From IMG/VR virus record IMGVR_UViG_3300030330_005139: DNA of 64,000 nt. The stretch is one strand, 5' to 3'. The notes under the pieces were generated by a model, which had not been told where the DNA came from, ran no database searches, and was given only the letters and a program-made list of their open reading frames with translations. Positions 11,265-63,459 of this stretch are shown one piece after another (the stretch's first letter is position 1; each line of letters begins with the position of its first letter). The translations under genes and the position numbers were made by a program. Source of the stretch: a virus (lineage: Duplodnaviria > Caudoviricetes).

Positions 11265-11415
11265 CCCCATCAACATCCTTAGACTCATCAGTGAGTTGGA
11301 AGGATCCTCTCAGATGCTCAACCTGATCGATGAACAGGAAGACAAAAGAATCATTGATCTTCTGAAGTCAAAGTATTATAAAATTTATTTCAGTCTGAAG
11401 AAACTTGATAAATAG
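11248..11415 (+). CDS. Hypothetical protein (55 aa)
   Basis: Translated by hand: MKKGSNPINILRLISELEGS... Confidence 0.55.
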   Translation: MKKGSNPINILRLISELEGSSQMLNLIDEQEDKRIIDLLKSKYYKIYFSLKKLDK

Positions 11416-11433
11416 CTCAAAGAGTGCTATAAT
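11405..11433 (+). promoter_or_regulatory. Sigma70-type promoter
   Basis: TTGATA-17-TATAAT with TG extension. Confidence 0.7.
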
Positions 11434-11459
11434 GTACTCATGAGGTCAGAGGAACCACC

Positions 11460-11678
11460 ATGACAAAACTCTTATTGAGTCTAATTGTGATTTCCTTGTT
11501 GGGTTCATCACCCGCCTTGGCGGATGACCACACCCCTCTTAGTTGCGAGGAGTATTCTGAGGTTCGTGAGATAATCTTAGAAACTGATTGGCTCTCTCAA
11601 AAAGAAAAAGATCAGCTTCTTAAGAACATCGAATCGTTCCATGAAACTTCTTGTGTCTGGCCTTCGTTCATTCCTTAA
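11460..11678 (+). CDS. Small secreted hypothetical protein
   Basis: Signal peptide ending PALA; two Cys. Confidence 0.6.
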   Translation: MTKLLLSLIVISLLGSSPALADDHTPLSCEEYSEVREIILETDWLSQKEKDQLLKNIESFHETSCVWPSFIP

Positions 11679-12184: not shown

Positions 12185-12343
12185 ATGGATACAGAAAAAC
12201 TAAAACTGATTGTAAGAAATTTAAAGTCTCTGGTCGATGTCTTGGAGTCTGAGATTTATTCTGATGTAGAATCATACACTAAAGGATCAGAGTATCTCCC
12301 CCCACTTGCTGATTACGATGAGGTCTTTGAAGATGACGAATGA
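12185..12343 (+). CDS. Hypothetical protein (52 aa)
   Basis: Translated by hand: MDTEKLKLIVRNLKSLV...DYDEVFEDDE. Confidence 0.65.
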   Translation: MDTEKLKLIVRNLKSLVDVLESEIYSDVESYTKGSEYLPPLADYDEVFEDDE

Positions 12344-52761: not shown

Positions 52762-52823
52762 TGTGTTATAATGTTAGTAACCACCAAAGCTCCCCTTTGG
52801 TGTAATCACTAATCTAAAACGAC

Positions 52824-53015
52824 ATGTCGAGCACCCTTCTGGCAATTCAATCTCTTCGTAAAGTTTGGCGTGAGCAAGACTTCAAATTGAGTTCTGATCA
52901 ACAAAAACGTCTCGACGAGTTGACAGACCTTCGCCGCCGTGAAGTGAGTGAATTCTATGAACAGGGTCGCGTTTGGTCTGGTCCTTCTGAGGCTAGCAAA
53001 CCCGTCGAAGAGTGA
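52824..53015 (+). CDS. Hypothetical protein
   Basis: First ORF after repeat 1. Confidence 0.65.
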   Translation: MSSTLLAIQSLRKVWREQDFKLSSDQQKRLDELTDLRRREVSEFYEQGRVWSGPSEASKPVEE

Positions 53016-53021
53016 CAAACT

Positions 53022-53047
53022 GAGGGGGTTTCGCCCCCTCTTTTTTT
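53022..53047 (+). terminator. Intrinsic terminator
   Basis: GAGGGGG-tttcg-CCCCCTC followed by T7. Confidence 0.85.
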
Positions 53048-53060
53048 ATCTTAACTTATC

Positions 53061-53354
53061 ATGACAATGACTGAATCTAATTACAGAGTTCTGAAGTTTG
53101 GTAATCATCCCACCGAGGGTTTGTGGAACAGCAGAACATTCACTCGTTCGCTTGTTGAGGCAGAAAGTCTTTTTCATGAAGCAGAGGTTGAGCGTGCCAC
53201 TGGTGGAGATCTCATCGGTTCTGTTCTCATTAAGGTTGATGACGATTCCTGGCATGTCCTTGACAAGTTTGGCACAGAGGGTTACAGTATTGGTCTGTCT
53301 CAAGTTGGAGTGTTTGAGGTCTCAAATTCCGACACTGTTATGGATCTATCATGA
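53061..53354 (+). CDS. Hypothetical protein
   Basis: 97-aa ORF. Confidence 0.6.
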   Translation: MTMTESNYRVLKFGNHPTEGLWNSRTFTRSLVEAESLFHEAEVERATGGDLIGSVLIKVDDDSWHVLDKFGTEGYSIGLSQVGVFEVSNSDTVMDLS

Positions 53355-53623
53355 AATTTGTTGACTTTACGGCAGAAGAATATACCTTCGTTACCAAATT
53401 ATTGGAAGAGACGAAGGCATCTACAAACAAGGATCTTAAAGTTCTGAATGGTGCAATCTTGGCTCTCAAAATTGCATCGGCTGACGACCATTACCGTCGT
53501 TATGTGAAGATTGCTCCTCATGGTGAAAGACTCACTAGGGAACAATTCTTTGAGGAACTTTATCATATAACTGAACAAGATTTGAAGTCAAGAGATGATA
53601 ACGGCGGTTTCGGTTATTGTTAG
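53351..53623 (+). CDS. Hypothetical protein
   Basis: ATGA overlap; its TAG stop lies inside repeat 2. Confidence 0.6.
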   Translation: MKFVDFTAEEYTFVTKLLEETKASTNKDLKVLNGAILALKIASADDHYRRYVKIAPHGERLTREQFFEELYHITEQDLKSRDDNGGFGYC

Positions 53624-53647
53624 TAACCTCTAAAGCTCCCCTTTAGT

Positions 53648-54553
53648 ATGACTAAACCTCTCACCCACATAGCCCACCCAGAAGACCTCATCCTCTCCGG
53701 TGAGCTCTGGGTGGTTGATGCCCTAACTAATCAAGCCAATCACATCTCTGTCAAGATTGATGGAGCACCTGCGATTGTCTGGGGAACTCACCCACAAACT
53801 GGTAAGTTCTTTGTTTCAACCAAGTCTGCTTTCAACAAGAAAAAGGACAAAATCTGTTACACCATTGATGATGTCAGAAAGCACTTCAAAGGTGTTTATG
53901 AACTCCAAGACATTCTGATCACCTGTCTTATGAACTTGCCCGTAACTGAGGGCATCTTCCAAGGTGATTTCATTGGTTTTGGTGGTGAAGGTCAGAAAGC
54001 TTTCACTCCTAACACTCTCACCTACACCTTCTCTGAGGCACCACATCAGACCATCATTGTCGCCCCTCATACTTATTATGAGGTGGATTCTGACACTCAC
54101 ATGAGTCAAGCAGTCCCACATCCTCTGAAGGGTGATCTCATCTCGACCGACGATTGTTTGTTCATTCAACCTTTCGTTGATCGTTTCCAACGTGATCACC
54201 GTCCCTTCAAGATTAACAAGTCTCGTTGGAACTTTCTCTCTCAGAAAGACGCACAAAGTGCAATCATCTCCATCAACGCTTTGATCCGTTCTGGTCAAGA
54301 ACTTGATGACCAAACTCTCATCGAGATCATCGGTGATGCTGACCTGGTTAACCTCTATCAACTGGTCATTTCTCTAAAAGAGATGTTTATGGATGATCTC
54401 ATCGTTTATGGTTCTCCGACCTGTTCTGTGGGGTCTGAGAGGGTTCTGGCAGAGGGTTTCGTTATTTACTCCGACCACGGTGACATTCCTCTGAAACTTG
54501 TCAATCGTCATGAGTTCGCATTCAACAACATGAACTATGGTAAATTCTCCTGA
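53648..54553 (+). CDS. Ligase-like covalent nucleotidyltransferase-fold protein (DUF6267-like)
   Basis: H..HPED, VKIDGAP, FQGD, EGFVI, LKLVNR. Confidence 0.6.
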   Translation: MTKPLTHIAHPEDLILSGELWVVDALTNQANHISVKIDGAPAIVWGTHPQTGKFFVSTKSAFNKKKDKICYTIDDVRKHFKGVYELQDILITCLMNLPVTEGIFQGDFIGFGGEGQKAFTPNTLTYTFSEAPHQTIIVAPHTYYEVDSDTHMSQAVPHPLKGDLISTDDCLFIQPFVDRFQRDHRPFKINKSRWNFLSQKDAQSAIISINALIRSGQELDDQTLIEIIGDADLVNLYQLVISLKEMFMDDLIVYGSPTCSVGSERVLAEGFVIYSDHGDIPLKLVNRHEFAFNNMNYGKFS

Positions 54554-54605
54554 TTATTGTTAGTAACCTCCAAAGATCACCTTTAGTGTAACCGCCCCCC
54601 AACAC

Positions 54606-54803
54606 ATGAACGAACAGAACTCCAATCAACTGCGAGACAAAAGCATTGACACAATGGGTCAGACTCTTTTTGACCGTTTCGCTGAACTTCTGGACGACGA
54701 TCAAGAAACCGCTAAGGCACTCCATTCTGAATGGGTTGTTGATGGTCAGGATCCCGAAGAAGGCGATTACGAGTTCATCTTTGTTGAAAAGATCTCCTCA
54801 TGA
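54606..54803 (+). CDS. Hypothetical protein
   Basis: After repeat 3. Confidence 0.6.
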   Translation: MNEQNSNQLRDKSIDTMGQTLFDRFAELLDDDQETAKALHSEWVVDGQDPEEGDYEFIFVEKISS

Positions 54804-55006
54804 AAAATCTCTCAGATCGCACAATTTCTAACCTGGCAACTGCAGTCCATGAGTCTGTCGTCAAACAGATCTACAGTGATCCTAAATTCCTGACAGACTT
54901 GTCTGAAGCCCTTGGCAGATCCCTCACCGAGCTTTATGGTGAGATGGACGAACAACTAAGGTCAGATATTGGAATGTTAATTTTCGACAGGATGACAATC
55001 AAATGA
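54800..55006 (+). CDS. Hypothetical protein
   Basis: ATGA overlap; resembles 58691-58909 (IYSDPKF vs IYTDDRF). Confidence 0.6.
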   Translation: MKNLSDRTISNLATAVHESVVKQIYSDPKFLTDLSEALGRSLTELYGEMDEQLRSDIGMLIFDRMTIK

Positions 55007-55215
55007 GCAAATGGATTGTTCAGAAACCCTCCATTCTTGACCCAAAACAAATCTCTCACGGGTTTGTCATCAATGATGGAGAATATGCAGCAGTCCCAAT
55101 GAGTAACAGCGACGCACAACTGATGGTCATCCATAACGGATCACCACTCAAAGTTTGTCGTAACGAATCATCAGCTTTCAACTTTATCAAGAAACACCAA
55201 AAACGAAGAAAATGA
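55003..55215 (+). CDS. Hypothetical protein
   Basis: YAAVP...IHNG...CRN. Confidence 0.65.
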   Translation: MSKWIVQKPSILDPKQISHGFVINDGEYAAVPMSNSDAQLMVIHNGSPLKVCRNESSAFNFIKKHQKRRK

Positions 55216-55424
55216 AACAAACATTCAGATTCTTTTCATCCATCATCATCGGTTCTGTGGCACTTGCTGGTGTCTCTTTCATCTTTGATCAACAACGTAA
55301 CCAACAAGATTTTGTTGGTGGGCGAGTTGTTGGTTATGTTGAAGTTTCTCCTGGTGTTTGTGAATCCACCTTCATGGGAGAAGACAATGAGTTCTACATT
55401 ATTCAAGAGGAGTGCAACAAATGA
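55212..55424 (+). CDS. Hypothetical membrane-anchored protein
   Basis: TM N-terminus; VGYVEVSPGVC. Confidence 0.6.
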   Translation: MKQTFRFFSSIIIGSVALAGVSFIFDQQRNQQDFVGGRVVGYVEVSPGVCESTFMGEDNEFYIIQEECNK

Positions 55425-55606
55425 TCAACACTGATCTTCTCGCAGTCATCGAAAGTCTGGAAGATGGTGTGAATGTCTCATATGAGGCACTTGATGATCC
55501 TGATCGGGGTTATACTTACGCCACTAGATATTCACGAGTCACGATGACTCACGCCATTGAATGTCTCAAACTCATCATTGAACAAAACCAAAAAGAAAAT
55601 GATTGA
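55421..55606 (+). CDS. Hypothetical protein
   Basis: ATGA overlap. Confidence 0.6.
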   Translation: MINTDLLAVIESLEDGVNVSYEALDDPDRGYTYATRYSRVTMTHAIECLKLIIEQNQKEND

Positions 55607-55769
55607 CACTGATCTTCTCATCGCTTACGAAGAAGGAACCATTGAAAAAGATCAGTTCCTTGAATTGTTCCAACAAATTTATGACTCTAGGGCATATACC
55701 TGGCTTCAAGGTCATTATGGTCGCACACTTTCTGACCTGGCACAAGCTGGTCTGATAAATCTCAAGTGA
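55599..55769 (+). CDS. Hypothetical protein
   Basis: AYEEG...WLQGHYGR. Confidence 0.65.
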   Translation: MIDTDLLIAYEEGTIEKDQFLELFQQIYDSRAYTWLQGHYGRTLSDLAQAGLINLK

Positions 55770-55820
55770 TTATTGTTAGTTACCCCTAAAGCTCCCCTTT
55801 AGTGTAACCACTGATTTACT

Positions 55821-56009
55821 ATGACACTCACTGAAAGAAACCAAAAACTCTTCGAACTTCGTCAGAAACTCAACAAAGCCCGTGCAGAAGTTGCATGGAT
55901 TGAGCAAGAGATCTGGCTCACCAAAGATCAATATGATCGTGAGGGTCTTGACCTCTTCAAAGAAATGGGTCTCGATAGTCCCATGTTCTACGAAATTTAC
56001 GGAGGTTGA
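55821..56009 (+). CDS. Hypothetical protein
   Basis: After repeat 4. Confidence 0.6.
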   Translation: MTLTERNQKLFELRQKLNKARAEVAWIEQEIWLTKDQYDREGLDLFKEMGLDSPMFYEIYGG

Positions 56010-56013
56010 TGAC

Positions 56014-56181
56014 ATGATCACATCTAAGACACAAATGCTCAAGATCATGAAAACCTGTGCTCATGCAGATACTCTCACCCGAGAAGAAAAGTTTCTTGTC
56101 TTCTGTAGAGTATGTGACAACATGCTCAAAGAGGGCAGAATGACCAAGGCAACACATAAACGGTTCACTCAGATTTGGTGA
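56014..56181 (+). CDS. Hypothetical protein
   Basis: MITSKTQ...DNMLKEGRMT. Confidence 0.6.
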   Translation: MITSKTQMLKIMKTCAHADTLTREEKFLVFCRVCDNMLKEGRMTKATHKRFTQIW

Positions 56182-56235
56182 CATTATTGTTAGTTACCCC
56201 TAAAGCTCCCCTTTAGTGTAACCACGTTTTCCATT

Positions 56236-56583
56236 ATGACTTTCGTAGCTCCACAACACAAATCAGAATATCTCACTGAGTGTCTCATTGAGGTTCTCAA
56301 CAACCGTGAGAAAGTGAACGCTCTTGAGTCTTCACGAACCGTTTACACTAACTTCGAGTATGAAGTTGGTCGTAAGTACATCAAAGTCTGGTCTTATCTG
56401 GTCGATGGTGATGAACGTCTCCGTGGTCGTTCCTGTTACATGTTCGTGGACAAAGAGACTGGAGCGGTTTACAAACCAGCCTCTTATAAGGCACCCGCTA
56501 AGGGCATTCGGTTCCAGATTGATCAGTTGGCTGATAACCCTGACATCTGTGATCCTTATGGGAGTTTCCTTTACATCCGATGA
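56236..56583 (+). CDS. Conserved phage hypothetical protein
   Basis: GRKYIKV, FVDKETG.VYKPASYKAPAKG. Confidence 0.7.
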   Translation: MTFVAPQHKSEYLTECLIEVLNNREKVNALESSRTVYTNFEYEVGRKYIKVWSYLVDGDERLRGRSCYMFVDKETGAVYKPASYKAPAKGIRFQIDQLADNPDICDPYGSFLYIR

Positions 56584-56587
56584 GAAT

Positions 56588-56615
56588 GAGAGAGGTTTAC
56601 AACCTCTCTTTTTTT
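56588..56615 (+). terminator. Intrinsic terminator
   Basis: AGAGAGGTT-tac-AACCTCTCT then T-run. Confidence 0.8.
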
Positions 56616-56713
56616 ATGTTAAAATCCTTTTGTCTCAATGAAGGCGCTAAGAATCTAGAGTACATTGTTAGTAACCTCTAAAGCTCTCCTGTAGTGTAAC
56701 TTACTTGGTTTTT

Positions 56714-56908
56714 ATGACCAGTTCTGATCTTCGTCCTAATGTTGTGATGGAAATGGATGATTATTCATCCACCTTTGAACTCCTAACCCTTGACTTTAAG
56801 GCACGAGTAAAGATTCACAACTATGAAGTAAAGAAACTCGGTGAGGACATCAGAGCACTTTTCAACTTCGTTTCTGATAAGATGTTCTTCAAACTCATCG
56901 ACATGTGA
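56714..56908 (+). CDS. Hypothetical protein
   Basis: After repeat 6. Confidence 0.55.
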   Translation: MTSSDLRPNVVMEMDDYSSTFELLTLDFKARVKIHNYEVKKLGEDIRALFNFVSDKMFFKLIDM

Positions 56909-56913
56909 TGAAC

Positions 56914-56939
56914 GAGAGAGGAGTAATCCTCTCTTTTTT
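56914..56939 (+). terminator. Intrinsic terminator
   Basis: AGAGAGGA-gtaa-TCCTCTCT then T-run, abutting repeat 7. Confidence 0.8.
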
Positions 56940-56990
56940 ATTGTTAGTTACCTCCAAAGCTCACCCTTAGTGTAATCACTCATTCAAACC

Positions 56991-57170
56991 ATGATTCACT
57001 ATCTCGTTAAGTGTCCCTCTGATCCTTATGAGAACACCGATTGTTTAAGTGATCTCGACAGGGCTTGGGATCTCTGTCTCTCACTCGCTGAAGAGTATGG
57101 ATACGCCGAAGTTGGTTACTATAACATCCAAGGACATTACCAACTCGTCGGTGATTATTGTTTCAACTGA
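56991..57170 (+). CDS. Hypothetical protein (59 aa)
   Basis: Translated by hand: MIHYLVKCPSDPYEN...AWDLC...YGYAEV. Confidence 0.6.
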   Translation: MIHYLVKCPSDPYENTDCLSDLDRAWDLCLSLAEEYGYAEVGYYNIQGHYQLVGDYCFN

Positions 57171-57172
57171 TT

Positions 57173-57325
57173 ATGAATAATAATACCACTAACTCTGTCA
57201 TTTCTCTTGTTACCTATCTTCAGGAACTGGAAGAGAACAACAAAATCAATGAGAGTGAGTACAAAAGAGCGTTGAAACTTGTAAACAATATTGTTAGTAA
57301 CCTCCAAAACTCTCCTTTAGTATAA
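57173..57325 (+). CDS. Hypothetical protein (50 aa), reads through repeat 8
   Basis: Translated by hand; ends VSNLQNSPLV. Confidence 0.4.
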   Translation: MNNNTTNSVISLVTYLQELEENNKINESEYKRALKLVNNIVSNLQNSPLV

Positions 57326-57339
57326 CCCACTCAATCATT

Positions 57340-57474
57340 ATGACACCTGAAGAATTTGAAGAAAATGTCAGAATCATCACGGGAGATCCTAACTGGTCCC
57401 TCCCTGATGATGAAGACAATAATGTTAGTAACCCCCAAAGCTCTCCTTTAGTACAACCCACTCAACCATTATGA
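57340..57474 (+). CDS. Hypothetical protein (44 aa), reads through repeat 9
   Basis: Translated by hand: MTPEEFEENVR...VSNPQSSPLVQPTQPL. Confidence 0.4.
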   Translation: MTPEEFEENVRIITGDPNWSLPDDEDNNVSNPQSSPLVQPTQPL

Positions 57475-57659
57475 AAACTAAGAATCCTCGTCTTGTCTTT
57501 GGTGATGATGAATTCACCTTCTTCCGTGTTAAACTCCTTGAAGAGGTAAAAGCTCAGAAGAGGTTGTTCAACCCAACTCAAGCAAAGAAAGAACAGAAGA
57601 AGGCAGACGATTGTCTTCGTTATCTGATGAACCATCAACCACACCAACTGGAATTCTGA
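57471..57659 (+). CDS. Hypothetical protein
   Basis: After repeat 9. Confidence 0.6.
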   Translation: MKTKNPRLVFGDDEFTFFRVKLLEEVKAQKRLFNPTQAKKEQKKADDCLRYLMNHQPHQLEF

Positions 57660-57808
57660 TGAACACTTTACAAGTCGAACAATTACAGGAAGACATCATC
57701 ACAATCATGGAATCTCATTTTCCTAATGAGAACGTAGATGAGGTGATTGAACTTCTATGTGACGCTGTTAACCAAAACATTTCACCCACACTTTCTGATC
57801 ATGACTAA
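57659..57808 (+). CDS. Hypothetical protein
   Basis: EQLQEDII...LCDAV. Confidence 0.55.
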   Translation: MNTLQVEQLQEDIITIMESHFPNENVDEVIELLCDAVNQNISPTLSDHD

Positions 57809-58091
57809 AACTGAAGCACTCGCCATCTTCAAGCGAGCAGGATACACTTTCATTGGATACAAGGACACTGGCTGGGGTTGTAAGCAGTACTACTTCACTC
57901 ACCCCAACATTCAAGGAACTGAGGTTTCTTATGATCTGCCACTGTTGAGAAAGAGAGCAAGACATCTCGACATCAAGATGTGGCATGATGAGTATAAGGA
58001 ACAGCTGAGACAGGGCATTCAGGAGACTCTCTTCACTGACACGGAGATTGAGTGTAATTACTTCATCGAGAACCCTGTTGTAGTCGCCTAA
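57801..58091 (+). CDS. Hypothetical protein
   Basis: MTKTEAL...; stop abuts repeat 10. Confidence 0.6.
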   Translation: MTKTEALAIFKRAGYTFIGYKDTGWGCKQYYFTHPNIQGTEVSYDLPLLRKRARHLDIKMWHDEYKEQLRQGIQETLFTDTEIECNYFIENPVVVA

Positions 58092-58148
58092 TATTGTTAG
58101 TTACCTCCAAAGCTCCCCTTTAGTGTAACCACTCATTCAACTCAAATC

Positions 58149-58631
58149 ATGGCAACTCGTGGACGAATTGGAATCAAACTTTCTGATGGTTCCATCCTCT
58201 CAGCTTATCATCACTGGGACTCCTATCCTCAGTGGCTCGGTGTTAACCTGGTGAAGAACTTCAATTCTTTTCAGAAAGCAGCTGAACTCATCGATGGTGG
58301 TGACATGTCAGCATGTTACACTACTCATACTTGGGAGTCTGAACCTCTCAAACGAGAGATCATTCAACCTGATGGATCTTCTAAGTTCGAGTACATCAAA
58401 GACAATGAAGGCAACTGGGTTTACACCAAAGTGAAGCCAGAAGCTGGTCCTCAGTATTACTCTGAGCGTGGTGAGGATTGTCCTCCCCGTCTCGATCCTG
58501 ACCTTTTCGAGTATCTCTCCAAAGGCGAAGAATTCGCATACGTTTTTGAAGGTGGAACCTGGATATGTTATGATCTACATGAGTTCGATAGTGAGGAACC
58601 TGAAATTGTTGAAATCCCTCAGGTTCTCTGA
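58149..58631 (+). CDS. Conserved phage hypothetical protein
   Basis: MATRGRIG...YHHWDSYP...EEFAYVF. Confidence 0.7.
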   Translation: MATRGRIGIKLSDGSILSAYHHWDSYPQWLGVNLVKNFNSFQKAAELIDGGDMSACYTTHTWESEPLKREIIQPDGSSKFEYIKDNEGNWVYTKVKPEAGPQYYSERGEDCPPRLDPDLFEYLSKGEEFAYVFEGGTWICYDLHEFDSEEPEIVEIPQVL

Positions 58632-58690
58632 TTATTGTTTGTAACCTCTAAAGATCCCCTTTAGTGTAATCAACCATTTTCTCTAAACTG

Positions 58691-58909
58691 ATGACCAACC
58701 CTTCACAAACCCATAAAGCTCTTCAACTCCTTCGTGATGGGTTCATGATTGAGTTGACTGAAAAGATCTACACCGATGATCGATTCACAAATCTCATGAT
58801 GGATCTCACCTCTGAGTTTGTTGAGCAAAACATTCCCGTTGTTGATGAAGATCTCCAAGTGGATCTGGCACTGATGATGATGGAATCGATCTCGCTTCGT
58901 TCTTATTGA
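58691..58909 (+). CDS. Hypothetical protein
   Basis: After repeat 11. Confidence 0.6.
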   Translation: MTNPSQTHKALQLLRDGFMIELTEKIYTDDRFTNLMMDLTSEFVEQNIPVVDEDLQVDLALMMMESISLRSY

Positions 58910-58916
58910 TTTAAGT

Positions 58917-59435
58917 GTGACCGTGAAAACCAACCAAGAATTTATTTCCCTTGTAGAAGAGAGAACTCAATCAATTCTTTCCACCAAAGGTGATGTTGGG
59001 CGTCAGGCAATCGCAACGACTCGCGGTCAACAGGTGGAGAAAGCAGCAGCAATCTTATTATCGGATCACCCCAACGTTGAGAGTGTGGTTGAACAAGTCT
59101 TTGAAGAGGAAGTAGACGAGTTCTCCAACATTGACCTGGTTGTTACCACTAAAGACGGTCGAACAGTTTATGTACCCTGTGCTCGTGATCTTTGGTTGGG
59201 GACATCACAACAAGATCGCCTTCAGATTGTATGGGCAAAGTTTAAGGGTGGACTGTTTAATGACCATGATGTCTGTTATCTCTGCCTGGATGATATTAAC
59301 ACAATCTTGAACAAAGAGCACCGCAAGAGTGCCAGACGGGGACCAAAGATCAAAAACTGCTGTCGTGTTCTATTTGAAGCTGGAGTGATAATGAACTTCG
59401 AACACCTTTGGAATCACCTTCTCACCACTGATTGA
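58917..59435 (+). CDS. Hypothetical protein, possible degenerate restriction-endonuclease fold
   Basis: G..VE helix and IDLVV strand, no canonical ExK. Confidence 0.4.
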   Translation: MTVKTNQEFISLVEERTQSILSTKGDVGRQAIATTRGQQVEKAAAILLSDHPNVESVVEQVFEEEVDEFSNIDLVVTTKDGRTVYVPCARDLWLGTSQQDRLQIVWAKFKGGLFNDHDVCYLCLDDINTILNKEHRKSARRGPKIKNCCRVLFEAGVIMNFEHLWNHLLTTD

Positions 59436-59481
59436 TGGTGATTATTGTTTGTAACCTCCAAAGCTCCCCCTTAGTGTAACC

Positions 59482-59688
59482 ATGTTTTTCATTATGGCAT
59501 TTCTCGACTGGATTCAAGAAGCAATCGGTTCTAAAGTTGAAGACGAATTTGGCATGGTTCATGTCATCACAGGTGGCAAACTTGTGGCTGACTCTCCCAT
59601 GTGGCCGATGATTCAACTGACTGATGACATGGGTGTTCTACGATATGTCACTCTTGATCGTTTCATGGAACTCGTTTCTGTTGGGTGA
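59482..59688 (+). CDS. Hypothetical protein
   Basis: Between repeats 12 and 13. Confidence 0.6.
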   Translation: MFFIMAFLDWIQEAIGSKVEDEFGMVHVITGGKLVADSPMWPMIQLTDDMGVLRYVTLDRFMELVSVG

Positions 59689-59803
59689 TATTGTTTGTTA
59701 CCTCCAAAGCTCTTCATTAGTGTAACCAGGACTTCTTCTCTAAGGTTGTTTCTCTGAAAAGACTTCTTCCTTAGAGTTGTTTCTCCTCTTAAACAAAAAC
59801 ATC

Positions 59804-60010
59804 ATGGTCTATCTCATCTCTCAATCCAACGGTTGCACATACACTCTCGACCCCGATCATTCCCGAGTTCTGTATTACGCACCTTTGTTGTCCGATGGTA
59901 CTTGTGAAACCGCATTCTCAGCTTACGCTGAAGTCGAATGGGACGAATTGGATGAAGATGTTCTTAACGAAGCAGATCGTTGTTATCACCTTCTGATGTC
60001 TGATCGTTGA
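59804..60010 (+). CDS. Hypothetical protein
   Basis: Between repeats 13 and 14. Confidence 0.6.
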   Translation: MVYLISQSNGCTYTLDPDHSRVLYYAPLLSDGTCETAFSAYAEVEWDELDEDVLNEADRCYHLLMSDR

Positions 60011-60064
60011 GGATTATTGTTTGTTACCTCCAAAGCTCTTCATTAGTGTAACCACATCAACCTC

Positions 60065-60208
60065 ATGAAACTCGTTCTTTTCGTCATCGTTGGAATTCTG
60101 TTCTGGACGAGTGATGACGCACGAAACTTTACCGCTAATCAACTCAATAACGCAGCTGAAATCGTCCGACCTGATACTAACAAGAACTCCTTCACAATCA
60201 AATTCTGA
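60065..60208 (+). CDS. Small membrane protein (47 aa)
   Basis: Translated by hand: MKLVLFVIVGILFWTSDDARNFTA; fills repeat 14-15 interval. Confidence 0.6.
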   Translation: MKLVLFVIVGILFWTSDDARNFTANQLNNAAEIVRPDTNKNSFTIKF

Positions 60209-60264
60209 TTATTGTTTGTTACCACCAAAGCTCCCCTTTAGTGTAACCACTCATTCAACCAATC

Positions 60265-60501
60265 ATGACTAACACCACTTACAACGGCTGGGCCAATTAC
60301 GAGACCTGGAATGTCGCTCTCTGGCTTGGAAATGACGAATCGATGTATCAAATGGCTCGGATGTTCCGCCATCATGGTTATAAGTCACTTTCACACATGT
60401 TGGAAGAAACTTTCGGTTCTGTGACTCCCGATGGTGTATATTGGAAGCACTCTGATCTTGACATTGAAAGTCTCAATGAAATGTTAGAGGATGATTTCTG
60501 A
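60265..60501 (+). CDS. Conserved phage hypothetical protein
   Basis: YNGWANYETWNVALWL. Confidence 0.7.
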   Translation: MTNTTYNGWANYETWNVALWLGNDESMYQMARMFRHHGYKSLSHMLEETFGSVTPDGVYWKHSDLDIESLNEMLEDDF

Positions 60502-60503
60502 TT

Positions 60504-60791
60504 ATGTCATCAATTTATCAACTCCGCGGATCCACTTTGGATCCTTTTCTTTCTGCTAAACTTGCACCTTTCATTCACGCACATCGTCCACATGATAAAC
60601 CTCCCGCTAAAGAAGATTTGGATAAAGGTGATTACATCCCCAAAGAATCGCCATTGTCTAAAGATAACATCATCGACACTTATAAGGCAATTAAGTATCA
60701 CCAAGACCTTGAATGGTTAAAGAGAAAGAGAGAGTATAATAGTAAGTGGAAAGGATACAGATCTCATTTTGCGTTAGGTATCTCCGAATGA
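60504..60791 (+). CDS. Hypothetical protein
   Basis: 95-aa ORF. Confidence 0.5.
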   Translation: MSSIYQLRGSTLDPFLSAKLAPFIHAHRPHDKPPAKEDLDKGDYIPKESPLSKDNIIDTYKAIKYHQDLEWLKRKREYNSKWKGYRSHFALGISE

Positions 60792-61249
60792 AAGAATTTG
60801 ATTATGAACTTGATTACAAACGTCTTGACTTTACAGATGAAGAAACTCGTCAACTTTATCGTATTGGAAGGGGAGAACAAGGGGTTTTATTGGTACGCCC
60901 TTACACAGACGATATTTGTGCTCATTGGAAATTTAAAACCCCTCGTTTAGCATCATTATCATCACAAAAGATTCTAAAGATGTATGAAGATTATAAGGAG
61001 AATAAGGACTTTATTGGTATGGATATGTGTCGTAAGTTTTTAGAGATGGGTTTCACAAGAGCAAGAAGATATGCCAATCATAAGGATGGAAAGAAGTATA
61101 ATTCTCAGGGGGAGGTGTTACCTCAGGAGAAGGATTGGAGAACATCACCTAAGGCACAATCTGCTGTCATTTTTAAGAAGATAAGGGACCAAGTTGCTTA
61201 TGATCCTGTTTATAAGGAGATGAGAAGGTTATGGAGGGATAATGAGTAA
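60788..61249 (+). CDS. DUF4385-like protein
   Basis: YRIGRGEQGVL..PY, GMDMCRKFLEMGFTRARRYANHK. Confidence 0.75.
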   Translation: MKEFDYELDYKRLDFTDEETRQLYRIGRGEQGVLLVRPYTDDICAHWKFKTPRLASLSSQKILKMYEDYKENKDFIGMDMCRKFLEMGFTRARRYANHKDGKKYNSQGEVLPQEKDWRTSPKAQSAVIFKKIRDQVAYDPVYKEMRRLWRDNE

Positions 61250-61530
61250 ATGGTCCTAAAAAAAGGTCATAAATAACACTTTTTTATTAAATAAATGGTT
61301 TTTTAAATGTGTATGAGTGTTTTATTGTTTTCCACAAGTAATGTTCAATTCTGTGGAAATCGTGTGGAATAGTGTGATAAACTGTGGAAAAGTAACAGAA
61401 TAAGAGAGAGAATTATGGTCATCTTTTATCGTCCTAAATGTCTCCTGCCGTTGTGACTTATGTGTCTGGAAATGTGCCAGGTCTTGTGATCTTATTGTCA
61501 GTTTATGTCACCTGGCGTTGTGATCTTGGC
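61250..61530. other. Candidate replication origin or DnaA-binding region
   Basis: AT-rich tract, four TTTTCCACA-like boxes, three TTGTGA(T)CTT repeats. Confidence 0.45.
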
Positions 61531-61534
61531 GAGC

Positions 61535-61563
61535 ATTCTAACAGAAGGACTCAGAAATGTCAA
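61535..61563 (-). promoter_or_regulatory. Sigma70-type promoter firing leftward
   Basis: Minus strand TTGACA-17-TAGAAT with TG extension. Confidence 0.7.
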
Positions 61564-61694
61564 CCCCCCTCCGAGACACTCCCACCCCCAGATTGCAATT
61601 CCTTATGTATGACTTTCGCAACACACTTAACACAGTGGAGATATACTTGTTATAATACTTTTGTCCTCATAAAGGCACTGAGACTCAGCAGCAT

Positions 61695-62243
61695 ATGAAT
61701 ATACTTACCAAGACACTTTTAGGCACTCTGAGTCTACTCAGCACCATCACTGCCACTGTACTCTCAGGAGAACAGATTGGTAAGTATCACTTCATGACTG
61801 GTGAAGACTTTGGAGAACATGAAGCACTTGCCACACAACTGATTGATACACTGAACCAGATGAATGTGCCTGTGTTGGATGGTACTAAGAATGAACTCTC
61901 ACAGTGTACATCAAAGACGAGTAATGTTCTGGGGTACTACTCAGCAAAGCATGATGTGATGGTGATTTGTACTAAGGATGTTCCAGATTGGTTGAGGTTT
62001 GAGACATTGGTGCATGAGACAGTTCATGTCATTCAAGACGCCAGAGATGGGTTGGAGAATGACACATTAGGGCAACCTGGTAGGAGTTACATTTCTACCC
62101 TATATGGAGATCTGGCTAAGAAGAAGCGCCGCCTAATCCGTGAGTCTTATCCACAGTCTCAGTGGAATGTTGAGGTGGAGGCATTCTACTTTGAGACGAA
62201 ACCTCAGGTGGTGTTGAATGAACTGAAGACGTGGGCATTCTGA
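61695..62243 (+). CDS. Secreted HEXXH metallopeptidase-like protein
   Basis: Signal/TM segment; LVHETVHVIQD...EVEA. Confidence 0.7.
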   Translation: MNILTKTLLGTLSLLSTITATVLSGEQIGKYHFMTGEDFGEHEALATQLIDTLNQMNVPVLDGTKNELSQCTSKTSNVLGYYSAKHDVMVICTKDVPDWLRFETLVHETVHVIQDARDGLENDTLGQPGRSYISTLYGDLAKKKRRLIRESYPQSQWNVEVEAFYFETKPQVVLNELKTWAF

Positions 62244-62282
62244 TGGTGTTATTGTTAGTAACCTCGAAACCTCTTCTTTAGT

Positions 62283-62519
62283 ATGAACAACACTTCTACC
62301 ATCACTTTCCGTCAAGCACTTGTCATTCTTGAAGAACACTTTGACTCAACCTATCGTGGCATCAAAAGTGTTCGTGAAATGTGTTCAGATTTGACTGACG
62401 CGATGTATTGGGACAAGGAAGATCCCAACACAATCTATCATCAATTCGAGACTAAATTTGGTCCGAATCGTATTGTCAAAGACGATCAAATCATCAAACT
62501 TGCTCTACACTACGTTTGA
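62283..62519 (+). CDS. Hypothetical protein
   Basis: ATG embedded in the end of repeat 16. Confidence 0.6.
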   Translation: MNNTSTITFRQALVILEEHFDSTYRGIKSVREMCSDLTDAMYWDKEDPNTIYHQFETKFGPNRIVKDDQIIKLALHYV

Positions 62520-62527
62520 CCCATTGA

Positions 62528-62556
62528 TTGACAACTAAGGAAGAAACAGTTATTAT
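62528..62556 (+). promoter_or_regulatory. Sigma70-type promoter
   Basis: TTGACA-17-TATTAT. Confidence 0.75.
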
Positions 62557-62561
62557 ACATA

Positions 62562-62709
62562 TGTGAGACCAAATCCCTAAGGTCTATAAACTTAGAGGGA
62601 CACATAGAGAGTGGTTACTTTATGTGAGCTGTAAAGATTGGTGGTTCTTTCTTTATAGTCTAGTGGTTACAAAAAACAAGGGCTGGGGGTGGTTCCCCTG
62701 GTCCTTTTT
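62562..62709 (+). ncRNA. Candidate ~150-nt multi-hairpin small RNA with repeated GUGGUU
   Basis: Promoter upstream, four hairpins, terminator 62678-62709; GTGGTT at 62611, 62641, 62663, 62689. Confidence 0.65.
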
Positions 62710-62769
62710 ATTGCCTGGTTGTTATCACTGAAGTGGTGGTTATTATGTGACACAAAGTAACACTGAGAT

Positions 62770-62798
62770 TTGACAAATAAGAACAGTTCTGGTATACT
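62770..62798 (+). promoter_or_regulatory. Sigma70-type promoter
   Basis: TTGACA-17-TATACT with TG extension. Confidence 0.75.
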
Positions 62799-63040
62799 GA
62801 AGGGACAGTGATTTCCGTTGTTATAGTATATCGGGGTGTCCGGCTTAGTGAATAATAAGTAATAAGGGTAATAAGGGTTAACCCCCGAATGACCCCCCCC
62901 CTACTTTTTTCGAAAAGTCTAACCTACAAAGGTGACAATTCGAGCGAACAATATCTTTCTAATAAAAATATTTCTGAGGTATACGAAGGTAAATCTATGT
63001 CGAATTCAATGAGACACCCGTCGAAACACTTAAAGCACTT

Positions 63041-63208
63041 ATGAGACCAGAAACAAGAAAGTCCATGGAGATGTTATTCACCGCCCGTTGGAATGTCCCG
63101 AAGGCAGCCAGACACTGTAACCTCACAGATAAGGAAATGAAGATTACTTTCAATGAGTATTGTCGTCTCAACCCTCCCACCTGGAAAGTCTCTGAGACCC
63201 CCCTGTGA
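63041..63208 (+). CDS. Hypothetical protein (55 aa, possibly HTH-like)
   Basis: Translated by hand: MRPETRKSMEMLF..WNVPKAA.HCNL. Confidence 0.6.
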   Translation: MRPETRKSMEMLFTARWNVPKAARHCNLTDKEMKITFNEYCRLNPPTWKVSETPL

Positions 63209-63282
63209 TCCCCTCAGAGAGGCTTTATGACACTCAGTGTGTGTTTATGTTATAACTAAGATATCCTTACAATTACTCACCT

Positions 63283-63459
63283 ATGATTGAAAGTAAAGGA
63301 GAGGTTTATCATGTTTACTGTGAAAGAGAATGTGTGATGAATAATCTTCCAAAAGAAAAGTTTGAGTCTGTGTGGGAATTCTGTAAAGAACTGCAAGACT
63401 CTCGGTTTTCTTATGAGAGATGTGATACAATCAAAACACTCGAAGAGGAGAGTTATTGA
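63283..63459 (+). CDS. Hypothetical protein (58 aa)
   Basis: Translated by hand: VYHVY...F..VW...EESY. Confidence 0.55.
   Translation: MIESKGEVYHVYCERECVMNNLPKEKFESVWEFCKELQDSRFSYERCDTIKTLEEESY

Follow-up and report, generated by a model that had tools for sequence, protein, structure and literature searches.

The 64,000-nt stretch of IMG/VR virus record IMGVR_UViG_3300030330_005139 (Duplodnaviria; Caudoviricetes), hereafter the window, carries a predicted small RNA (sRNA) whose recurrent hairpin-loop motif, GUGGUUAC, is exactly complementary to GTAACCAC, the conserved final 8 bases of a 40-nt element repeated in the same part of the genome. Related phages keep both motifs, and, judging from these sequences, the sRNA may act on the whole class of early genes. 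The sequence belongs to a T4-like cyanomyovirus: blastn with 55700-63300 matched only Synechococcus and Prochlorococcus myoviruses, in a patchy manner and at 70 to 77% identity, and the large open reading frames (ORFs) encode T4-type baseplate hub, tail-tube cap, and fiber proteins. T4-like cyanophages rank among the most abundant viruses of the sea.

A predicted small RNA with a repeated loop motif

The sRNA (62563-62711, + strand) is about 150 nt long, counted from its predicted 5′ end, and sits at the downstream edge of the early-gene cluster. It is preceded by a predicted sigma70-type promoter (62528-62556, + strand; TTGACA, 17 nt, TATTAT) that agrees with the consensus at 11 of 12 positions in a consensus scan, and it closes with an intrinsic terminator (62678-62706, + strand) of 12 pairs, 7 of them G-C, followed by TTTTT. 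Between promoter and terminator we found no ORF of at least 40 amino acids (aa) on either strand. The 153-nt sRNA stretch has a minimum free energy (MFE) of −54.5 kcal/mol (z = −4.17), and none of 200 shuffled sequences was as stable. Three sRNA haplotypes could be compared, since the unit is also carried by the IMG/VR contig G002 and by G003 (the same as metagenome locus L035), while L034 is identical to the window. The promoter is kept in G002 (as TAGTAT) and in G003. Substitutions in the second hairpin keep its pairing (two A-U pairs become G-U and one G-U becomes G-C), and the terminator of G003 retains its structure through a G-U to G-C change, a G-U to A-U change, and the loss of one pair by a paired change. 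Because a predicted promoter and terminator, the fold z score, the lack of an ORF, and pair-preserving stem changes all point the same way, we consider the unit very probably a genuine structured sRNA.

The hexamer GUGGUU, in places extended by AC, occurs four times on the sRNA, three times in or at hairpin loops, and all four copies are unaltered across the three haplotypes. The first hairpin (A; 62601-62626, + strand) has a 9-bp stem and the 8-nt loop AGUGGUUA, with motif M1, GAGUGGUUAC, at 62609-62618. The second (B; 62628-62659, + strand) holds motif M2, UGGUGGUUC (62641-62646), in its loop or apical part. Motif M3 (GUGGUUAC; 62663-62670, + strand; AGUGGUUACA at 62662-62671) lies in a linker and, in the MFE fold, is paired with 62567-62571, and motif M4 (62689-62694) comprises the last stem pair of the terminator, closed by its first G, and the 5-nt loop UGGUU. 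The original prediction, made from the letters of the window, had placed matches to the repeat at 62609-62618 (GAGTGGTTAC) and 62662-62671 (AGTGGTTACA) and a match to a sequence before the ATG at 11460 at 62688-62696 (GGTGGTTCC), and all three positions were correct. A fifth GTGGTT (62736-62741, + strand) lies beyond the terminator and is not conserved in G003; it is therefore probably outside the feature.

This clustering of motifs is itself far beyond chance. GTGGTT occurs 26 times in the 64 kb, against 14.7 expected, and five of these occurrences fall within 62611-62741. The longer form GTGGTTAC occurs twice (0.89 expected), both times within the sRNA, and a pattern of three motifs matched the window once and 100 shuffled sequences never.

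The unit resembles no RNA family that we could identify. A scan of the whole window with Rfam 15 gave no family at or above its gathering threshold, the best subthreshold match in 62450-63000 being cow-rumen-3 (15.5 bits against a threshold of 86.7), and blastn of 62500-62960 against GenBank phages returned no match. ARAGORN found no transfer RNA (tRNA) in the window, and a tRNA-like or D-loop reading of the loops, formed by eye, was dropped.

The 40-nt element and its tail

The repeat is a 40-nt element with the consensus ATTGTTaGTaACCtCcAAAGCTCcCCTTTAGTGTAACCAc. A fuzzy search located 16 copies, every one on the + strand and within 52770-62290, with none elsewhere in the window; our numbering of them agrees with that of the original prediction. 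Each copy starts at the upstream stop codon or a few bases from it, and little sequence separates its end from the next ATG. The tail GTAACCAC is found in copies 4 (55772-55811), 5 (56186-56225), 10 (58093-58132), 14 (60016-60055), and 15 (60211-60250); it is followed by TC in copies 10 and 15, and copy 10 offers a 10-nt complement of the M1 loop. Other copies end differently: with GTAATCAC in copies 1 (52770-52809; nhmmer E = 8.6 × 10−14, with GTAACCACC in its upstream half) and 7 (56940-56979), GTAACCGC in copy 3 (54556-54595), GTAACTTA in copy 6 (56664-56703, about 50 nt past a terminator at 56588-56610), ATAACCCA in copy 8 (57290-57329), ACAACCCA in copy 9 (57421-57460), GTAATCAA in copy 11 (58634-58673), GTAACCAT in copy 12 (59444-59483), and GTAACCAG in copy 13 (59690-59729). 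Two copies belong to a second class, in which the start codon of the gene coincides with element position 33: copy 2 (53616-53655), whose start codon at 53648 opens a 301-aa ORF, and copy 16 (62251-62290), whose ATG at 62283 opens a conserved 78-aa ORF. The original prediction had read the tails correctly: copies 10 and 15 have GTAACCACTC, copies 4, 10, and 15 have TGTAACCACT, and copies 5 and 14 have GTAACCAC; its variants AATCAC (copies 1 and 7) and AACCGC (copy 3) are also right.

In loci sampled without bias, GTAACCAC is the commonest tail variant, at about 4 to 5 of 16 copies. Across 130 unique class-1 copies, a sample that is biased in that it was partly retrieved using the tail itself, information content was high up to position 36, moderate at positions 37 to 40, and about 0.1 bit at position 41. 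The −10-like box is TTTAGT in the window and TATAGT, a good −10 box, in relatives.

Strength of the complementarity within the window

Pairing is energetically plausible for M1. Its loop is unpaired with a probability of 0.96, and against an opening cost of 3.7 kcal/mol for 10 nt stands a 10-bp duplex with the consensus tail worth −17.3 kcal/mol, so that M1 offers, in these models, the accessible seed and favorable duplex expected of a trans-acting sRNA. The argument that tail variants still pair through G-U is true but carries little weight, the variant duplexes being worth −10.6 to −12.4 kcal/mol.

We then asked how far this match exceeds chance. For antisense 7- to 9-mers, the sRNA ranked first or second among all 153-nt windows, the fraction scoring at least as high being 0.00005 to 0.002; for 10-mers that fraction was 0.009. 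As a chance benchmark for this rank test we used a coding-region locus on the + strand, 12275-12285, where TACACTAAAGG gives an 11-nt antisense match to the element core and scores like the sRNA. Unrestricted duplex energies set the sRNA apart from its shuffled versions with z = −2.1 (3 of 200 shuffles as good); because unrestricted RNAduplex returned unrealistically long duplexes, it was replaced by loop-sized duplexes with opening energies and by the k-mer rank test. Within the window, then, the complementarity is modestly above chance, at about 0.005. The original prediction had itself cautioned that matches of 6 to 10 nt could be accidental, and it is the comparative data that strengthen the case.

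We estimate the prior chance that two independently conserved motifs of one phage clade are exact complements over 8 of 8 bases at about 5 × 10−4 to 3 × 10−3. The lower value applies to a conserved 8-nt loop that is the complement of the modal element sequence at any one of the roughly 33 offsets that 40 nt allow. Since an accidental exact complement of two conserved motifs is improbable, we lean toward the view that the complementarity is functional in some way, with room left for the opposite. We also considered whether the sRNA is an inverted copy of the repeat, a likeness seen by eye from two GTAACC half-sites, and rejected it, because a profile hidden Markov model (HMM) built from 31 element copies gave only short matches (E = 4.5 and E = 83).

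Conservation in related phages

The comparison with relatives extends what had been seen in one genome, a structured RNA, in our judgment genuine, with a repeated motif in accessible loops that is the exact complement of the modal repeat tail: both motifs are conserved together in diverged relatives that have altered stems and other promoter positions. G002, about 87% identical over 61485-63162, has 15 element copies (degenerate pattern scans), and the element also occurs in IMG/VR contigs L032 and L033 and in metagenome contigs such as L040. With an altered upstream half it is present in the isolates S-B05, RB11-B, RN05-S, and S-B43 (host Synechococcus MW02). The core TATAGT|GTAACCAC is kept in relatives. 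The comparative IMG/VR set consists of loci with at least two full elements, and its tail frequencies are biased toward GTAACCAC; a scan of IMG/VR with the 15-mer CTATAGTGTAACCAC gave about as many single matches as chance predicts.

The hairpins have diverged around their loops. At the syntenic locus of the L040 lineage, recognized by a conserved TCTAACCTACAA stretch downstream, there is one hairpin, with a stem completely different from that of hairpin A and the loop cattGAGUGGUUACAguu. Between early genes of S-B05, RB11-B, and RN05-S stand two hairpins in tandem, with GUGGUUAC in each loop; in S-B05 (L052, 15980-16085) these are tandem GGCAT...TGTAAGGCC hairpins in an unannotated gap of the early cluster, and the same holds for RB11-B and RN05-S. 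Many IMG/VR contigs contain further stem versions of the GUGGUUAC hairpin. Among 14 gene-strand GTGGTTAC sites in 20 multi-element loci (164 kb), 11 occupy the loop of a stem of at least 6 bp, compared with 11 of 28 for nine composition-matched control 8-mers.

An alignment of 11 distinct hairpins (A2) showed both-sided changes in 7 of 9 inner stem pairs. In it, 89.8% of cells were paired, compared with 24 to 48% when the partners were slid; the covariation was reached by none of 500 shuffles, and the loop GTGGTTA was invariant. A single loop variant was seen, GUGGUUAU in L152, and it could still pair with G33 as G-U. The hairpin, with its invariant GUGGUUA(C/U) loop and covarying stems, is a new predicted structured RNA motif.

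The independent sRNA is limited to close relatives of the window, and in more distant phages hairpins with the loop motif lie inside early operons. The hairpin family was not found in the complete genomes of Syn9, ACG-2014f, and WH25-B, where there is no such element and an early element of another type is used. In ACG-2014f, a single exact forward-strand copy is antisense to that phage's promoter tail, and such copies form no cluster there; the arrangement would therefore be a clade-specific device and not a general rule of cyanophages.

The element as a candidate early promoter

The original prediction had described the cassettes and the RNA as a repeat-plus-guide system. We did not retain that description, as the repeat is most likely a promoter and not an RNA repeat that requires a guide, and no cas genes are among the annotated ORFs of the window. 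That the 40-nt repeat is the early-gene promoter of this cyanomyovirus lineage is a likely reading, which we infer from four features: the 16 same-strand copies each stand between a stop codon and the next ATG; copy 7 begins within the T-run of a strong terminator (56914-56935), so that its gene needs a promoter of its own; the small-gene clusters of Syn9 and ACG-2014f carry a different repeated element, with TATAAG or TGCTATACT; and conservation ends sharply at element position 40. A by-eye similarity to T7-like promoters (CTATAG) was dropped: the large ORFs are T4-type, and no phage RNA polymerase is among the annotated ORFs of the window.

The candidate −10 boxes are TATAGT or TTTAGT (positions 27 to 32) and TAGTGT (29 to 34), and only some lineages have a −35-like T(T/A)GT(T/A)A at positions 6 to 11. 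With either −10 candidate, the RNA would start at about element position 39 to 41. The start codons fall into two groups. In class-2 copies, an ATG exactly at position 33 opens a long ORF in 32 of 33 unique copies, and the same arrangement (TATAGT|ATG) is seen in L040, L041, L047, L160, and other relatives. The remaining start codons lie at positions 47 to 58, with almost none between 33 and 47. This bimodality suggests mRNAs that either lack a leader or have their 5′ end fixed at position 33, and it is what would be expected if mRNAs began there, either leaderless or with a leader of 14 to 25 nt that opens with GUAACCAC. Alternatively, the rule can arise because the invariant T34 and A36 permit an ATG at 33 only, combined with translation of read-through RNAs. 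Under either explanation, some translated RNA would be predicted to include the tail region. Terminators offered one weak case for a start at or before position 33, a class-2 element right after a terminator in L121.

Proposed mechanism and alternative explanations

Class-wide antisense control of early RNAs by the sRNA is the reading that we put forward, tentatively and at somewhat less than even confidence. A host-type sigma70 promoter would drive the terminated RNA of about 150 nt, which would accumulate; its loops, chiefly M1, would pair with GUAACCAC wherever early RNAs carry it, that is, in polycistronic early transcripts made by read-through, at a site 9 to 17 nt upstream of start codons, or, if RNAs start at element position 33, at their very 5′ ends. 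Through such pairing the whole early class would be translated less or altered in stability or processing. The timing of these events, the pairing in vivo, and its effect we infer from the anatomy, structure, conservation, and complementarity described above. More speculatively, and with greater doubt, the RNA may be an "anti-leader/anti-promoter" RNA of a marine cyanomyovirus clade, its GUGGUUAC loops, raised to four in this phage on a dedicated sigma70-driven sRNA, recognizing the 8-nt signature of the early class by base pairing and so timing the simultaneous shut-off of all early genes; as such it would act on the common 5′ leader (if RNAs start at 33) or on the open promoter itself, and RNA would do what T4 does with the proteins RegB and RegA. 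Control of recombination, which the original prediction had also entertained, was set aside, as an 8-nt inverted match is too short for homologous recombination.

Several observations weigh against antisense control. Sigma70 geometry would put the tail at about −6 to +2, in which case RNAs made from an element's own promoter would lack GUAACC and read-through RNAs would be the sole targets. The exact tail occurs in 5 of the 16 window copies and in about 30% of copies overall. M3 is mostly paired (probability unpaired, 0.25), and opening 8 to 10 nt around M4 would disrupt the terminator stem. The HMM match on the minus strand of the sRNA (E = 4.5) is at chance level and falls on the upstream GTAACC half-site, not on the tail. 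Relatives whose 78-aa ORF is 63 to 80% identical keep the element and have no sRNA at this locus, and in S-B43 the hairpin was not found although six elements are kept; the tail thus does not depend on hairpins. Loop motif and modal tail are unchanged in every lineage in which they were found, which is co-conservation and not co-variation. Finally, elements directly beside hairpins in relatives have nonconsensus tails that do not match the loop, which argues against a role for pairing in cis.

The strongest alternative is that the hairpins serve a purpose of their own, independent of the repeat (protein binding, stability, or processing), and that the complementarity is coincidental or the frozen trace of their origin. 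An in-window match at the 0.005 level only, equaled near 12275 and given E = 4.5 by the HMM, would be in keeping with this, as would the lack of co-variation, the persistence of the tail in lineages and genomes that have neither sRNA nor hairpins and so need neither, and the finding that complementarity beyond the 8-nt core is rarely consistent across lineages. We nevertheless hold it unlikely. The exact 8/8 complement has the low prior chance estimated above, the hairpins are not inverted element copies beyond 8 to 10 nt, so that a passive remnant would hardly stay invariant amid the turnover of its stems, and the family is confined to phages with this type of element.

Somewhat less probable still is a decoy that mimics the promoter. 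In sequence the loops equal the early promoter's template strand near its start (about −6 to +2), and they might titrate RNA polymerase or a specificity factor, the four loops on one sigma70-driven RNA forming a sponge that switches off early transcription. A sigma70-like geometry places the tail in the discriminator and start region, which is single-stranded in open complexes, and the conservation of the element ends exactly at position 40. Multiple copies of a short loop motif are the anatomy of a sponge RNA, an invariant motif amid covarying stems is what a recognition site would show, and co-conservation would be explained without the tail being transcribed. The idea is, however, purely inferential and invokes a putative factor; the sRNA has neither the rod with a central bubble of 6S RNA nor an Rfam match, and relatives with merely one or two operon-embedded hairpins would have a poor sponge.

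We think it improbable that the hairpins are cis-acting stem-loops of a module like the promoter-early stem-loops (PeSLs) of T4-type phages (PMC2839356, PMC4122927), serving as an insulator or attenuator of read-through or as a recombination hotspot, with the sRNA of the window a derived, amplified version. One or two hairpins do stand 10 to 20 nt upstream of an element in S-B05, L156, L172, and L152, an arrangement that recalls PeSLs, and a T-run follows the hairpin in L153; but most hairpins lack a T-run and hence are not intrinsic terminators, the tails of adjacent elements mismatch the loop, the invariant loop is left unexplained, and the sRNA of the window has its own promoter and terminator with no element behind it. 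Mimicry of the helix 45 region of 16S ribosomal RNA, an idea formed by eye, was dropped.

Comparison with known systems

The closest functional analogue of antisense control by this sRNA is the C4 RNA of P1 and P7 (RF01695), likewise a small structured phage RNA whose loops pair with short repeated sites in mRNA, in that case blocking expression. The sRNA has no sequence or structure match to C4 in Rfam scans. C4 acts on one operon (icd-ant) and is cut out of its target transcript, and it does not address a promoter class. With the trans-activating CRISPR RNA, the sRNA shares its layout, a single small RNA complementary to the repeats between the cassettes of an array; here, however, complementarity extends over 8 to 10 nt, compared with about 25 nt, which is too short for RNase III, and the repeats precede protein-coding genes. 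Like CsrB and RsmZ, it is a terminated sRNA with a single short motif repeated in hairpin loops, although the CsrB motif is GGA and that of the sRNA is different; to our knowledge, CsrA is not known in cyanobacteria. 6S RNA mimics promoter DNA and shares its logic with a decoy, but the sRNA lacks a 6S-like architecture.

Doron et al. (2016) are said to have reported that T4-like cyanophages express early genes under a novel conserved element and middle genes under host-like promoters. In the small-gene clusters of Syn9 and ACG-2014f, the element consists of GTGGCACA, about 28 nt, and then TGCTATACT or TATTCT, with TATACT or TATTCT as its −10 box, and it has no occurrence in the window. It is likewise repeated before small early genes and does not look like a sigma70 promoter; the window element, GTTAGTAACCTCCAAAG...T(A/T)TAGTGTAACCAC, is analogous to GTGGCACA...TGCTATACT in position only, the two being unrelated except for a TATA-type −10 box. 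We know of no antisense RNA partner described for the Syn9-type element.

PeSLs are composite motifs repeated between small variable ORFs in hyperplastic regions of T4-type phages (PMC2839356, PMC4122927), each combining a sigma70-like promoter with a GC-rich, terminator-like stem-loop whose stem is its defining part (PMC4122927). A stem-loop likewise stands directly before the element in relatives of this phage, but with a freely varying stem and an invariant loop that complements the promoter tail. In the window, copy 7 combines a terminator with an element, while most copies have no stem-loop and the promoter is not of the sigma70 consensus. Neither PMC2839356 nor PMC4122927 mentions PeSLs in cyanophages, and the sRNA is not among the cyanophage RNAs treated in PMC9964418 (CfrI, PhotoRC-II, wcaG, manA, glnA, and abiF).

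Neighboring features

Between copy 16 and the sRNA, the 78-aa ORF (62283-62519) is conserved in 18 metagenome contigs, where its identity is 63 to 100%. The ORF opens with four codons (MNNT) that belong to an element variant tail, ATGAACAACACT, which also heads other genes in relatives. Farther upstream, the region 61256-61391 has an AT-rich tract followed by TTCCACA and several TGTGGAA(A/T) boxes, and L040 has a similar AT-rich tract about 1 kb upstream of its hairpin locus.

Right after the sRNA terminator, the stretch 62770-62915 opens with a second near-consensus sigma70 promoter (TTGACA, 17 nt, TG-extended TATACT) that precedes another ORF-less stretch ending in a C-run and a T-run. It is partially conserved in G002, G003, L040, and S-B05, and its fold is no better than that of shuffled sequences (z = 0.48). 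Next to it, every relative examined, S-B05 among them, keeps TCTAACCTACAAAGGT (62918-62935), a sequence similar to the element's upstream half (GTAACCTCCAAAGCT) but lacking TATAGTGTAACCAC; it may mark a second promoter class with a common recognition site. A conserved 55-aa gene downstream (phrog_1308) was tried as a synteny anchor and rejected because its neighborhoods differ between Syn9 and WH25-B.

Away from the cluster, GGAACCACC (11451-11459), which the original prediction had singled out as a further complement directly before the ATG at 11460, is indeed present, but as a lone 9-mer over a GAGG ribosome-binding site it is not significant on its own. The gene at 11460 is preceded by a TTGATA, 17 nt, TGcTATAAT promoter (11415-11462), and early 5′ leaders of ACG-2014f end in AAGGAACCACC, similar to GGAACCACC, before the ATG.

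Implications

Whatever the mechanism, the element represents a new type of early element, present in S-B05-like isolates and many IMG/VR contigs, that annotation pipelines have missed, and the GUGGUUAC-loop hairpin represents a new structured RNA motif that is unannotated in published genomes. The start-codon rule, with ATGs at position 33 or at 47 to 58, is a clue to how early mRNAs arise and are translated. T4-like cyanophages switch from early to middle expression without MotA and AsiA, and an RNA that reads the shared signature of early promoters or leaders would offer a simple way to do so. Such a regulator, single and addressed to a promoter class by nucleic acid complementarity, would be unusual as well.

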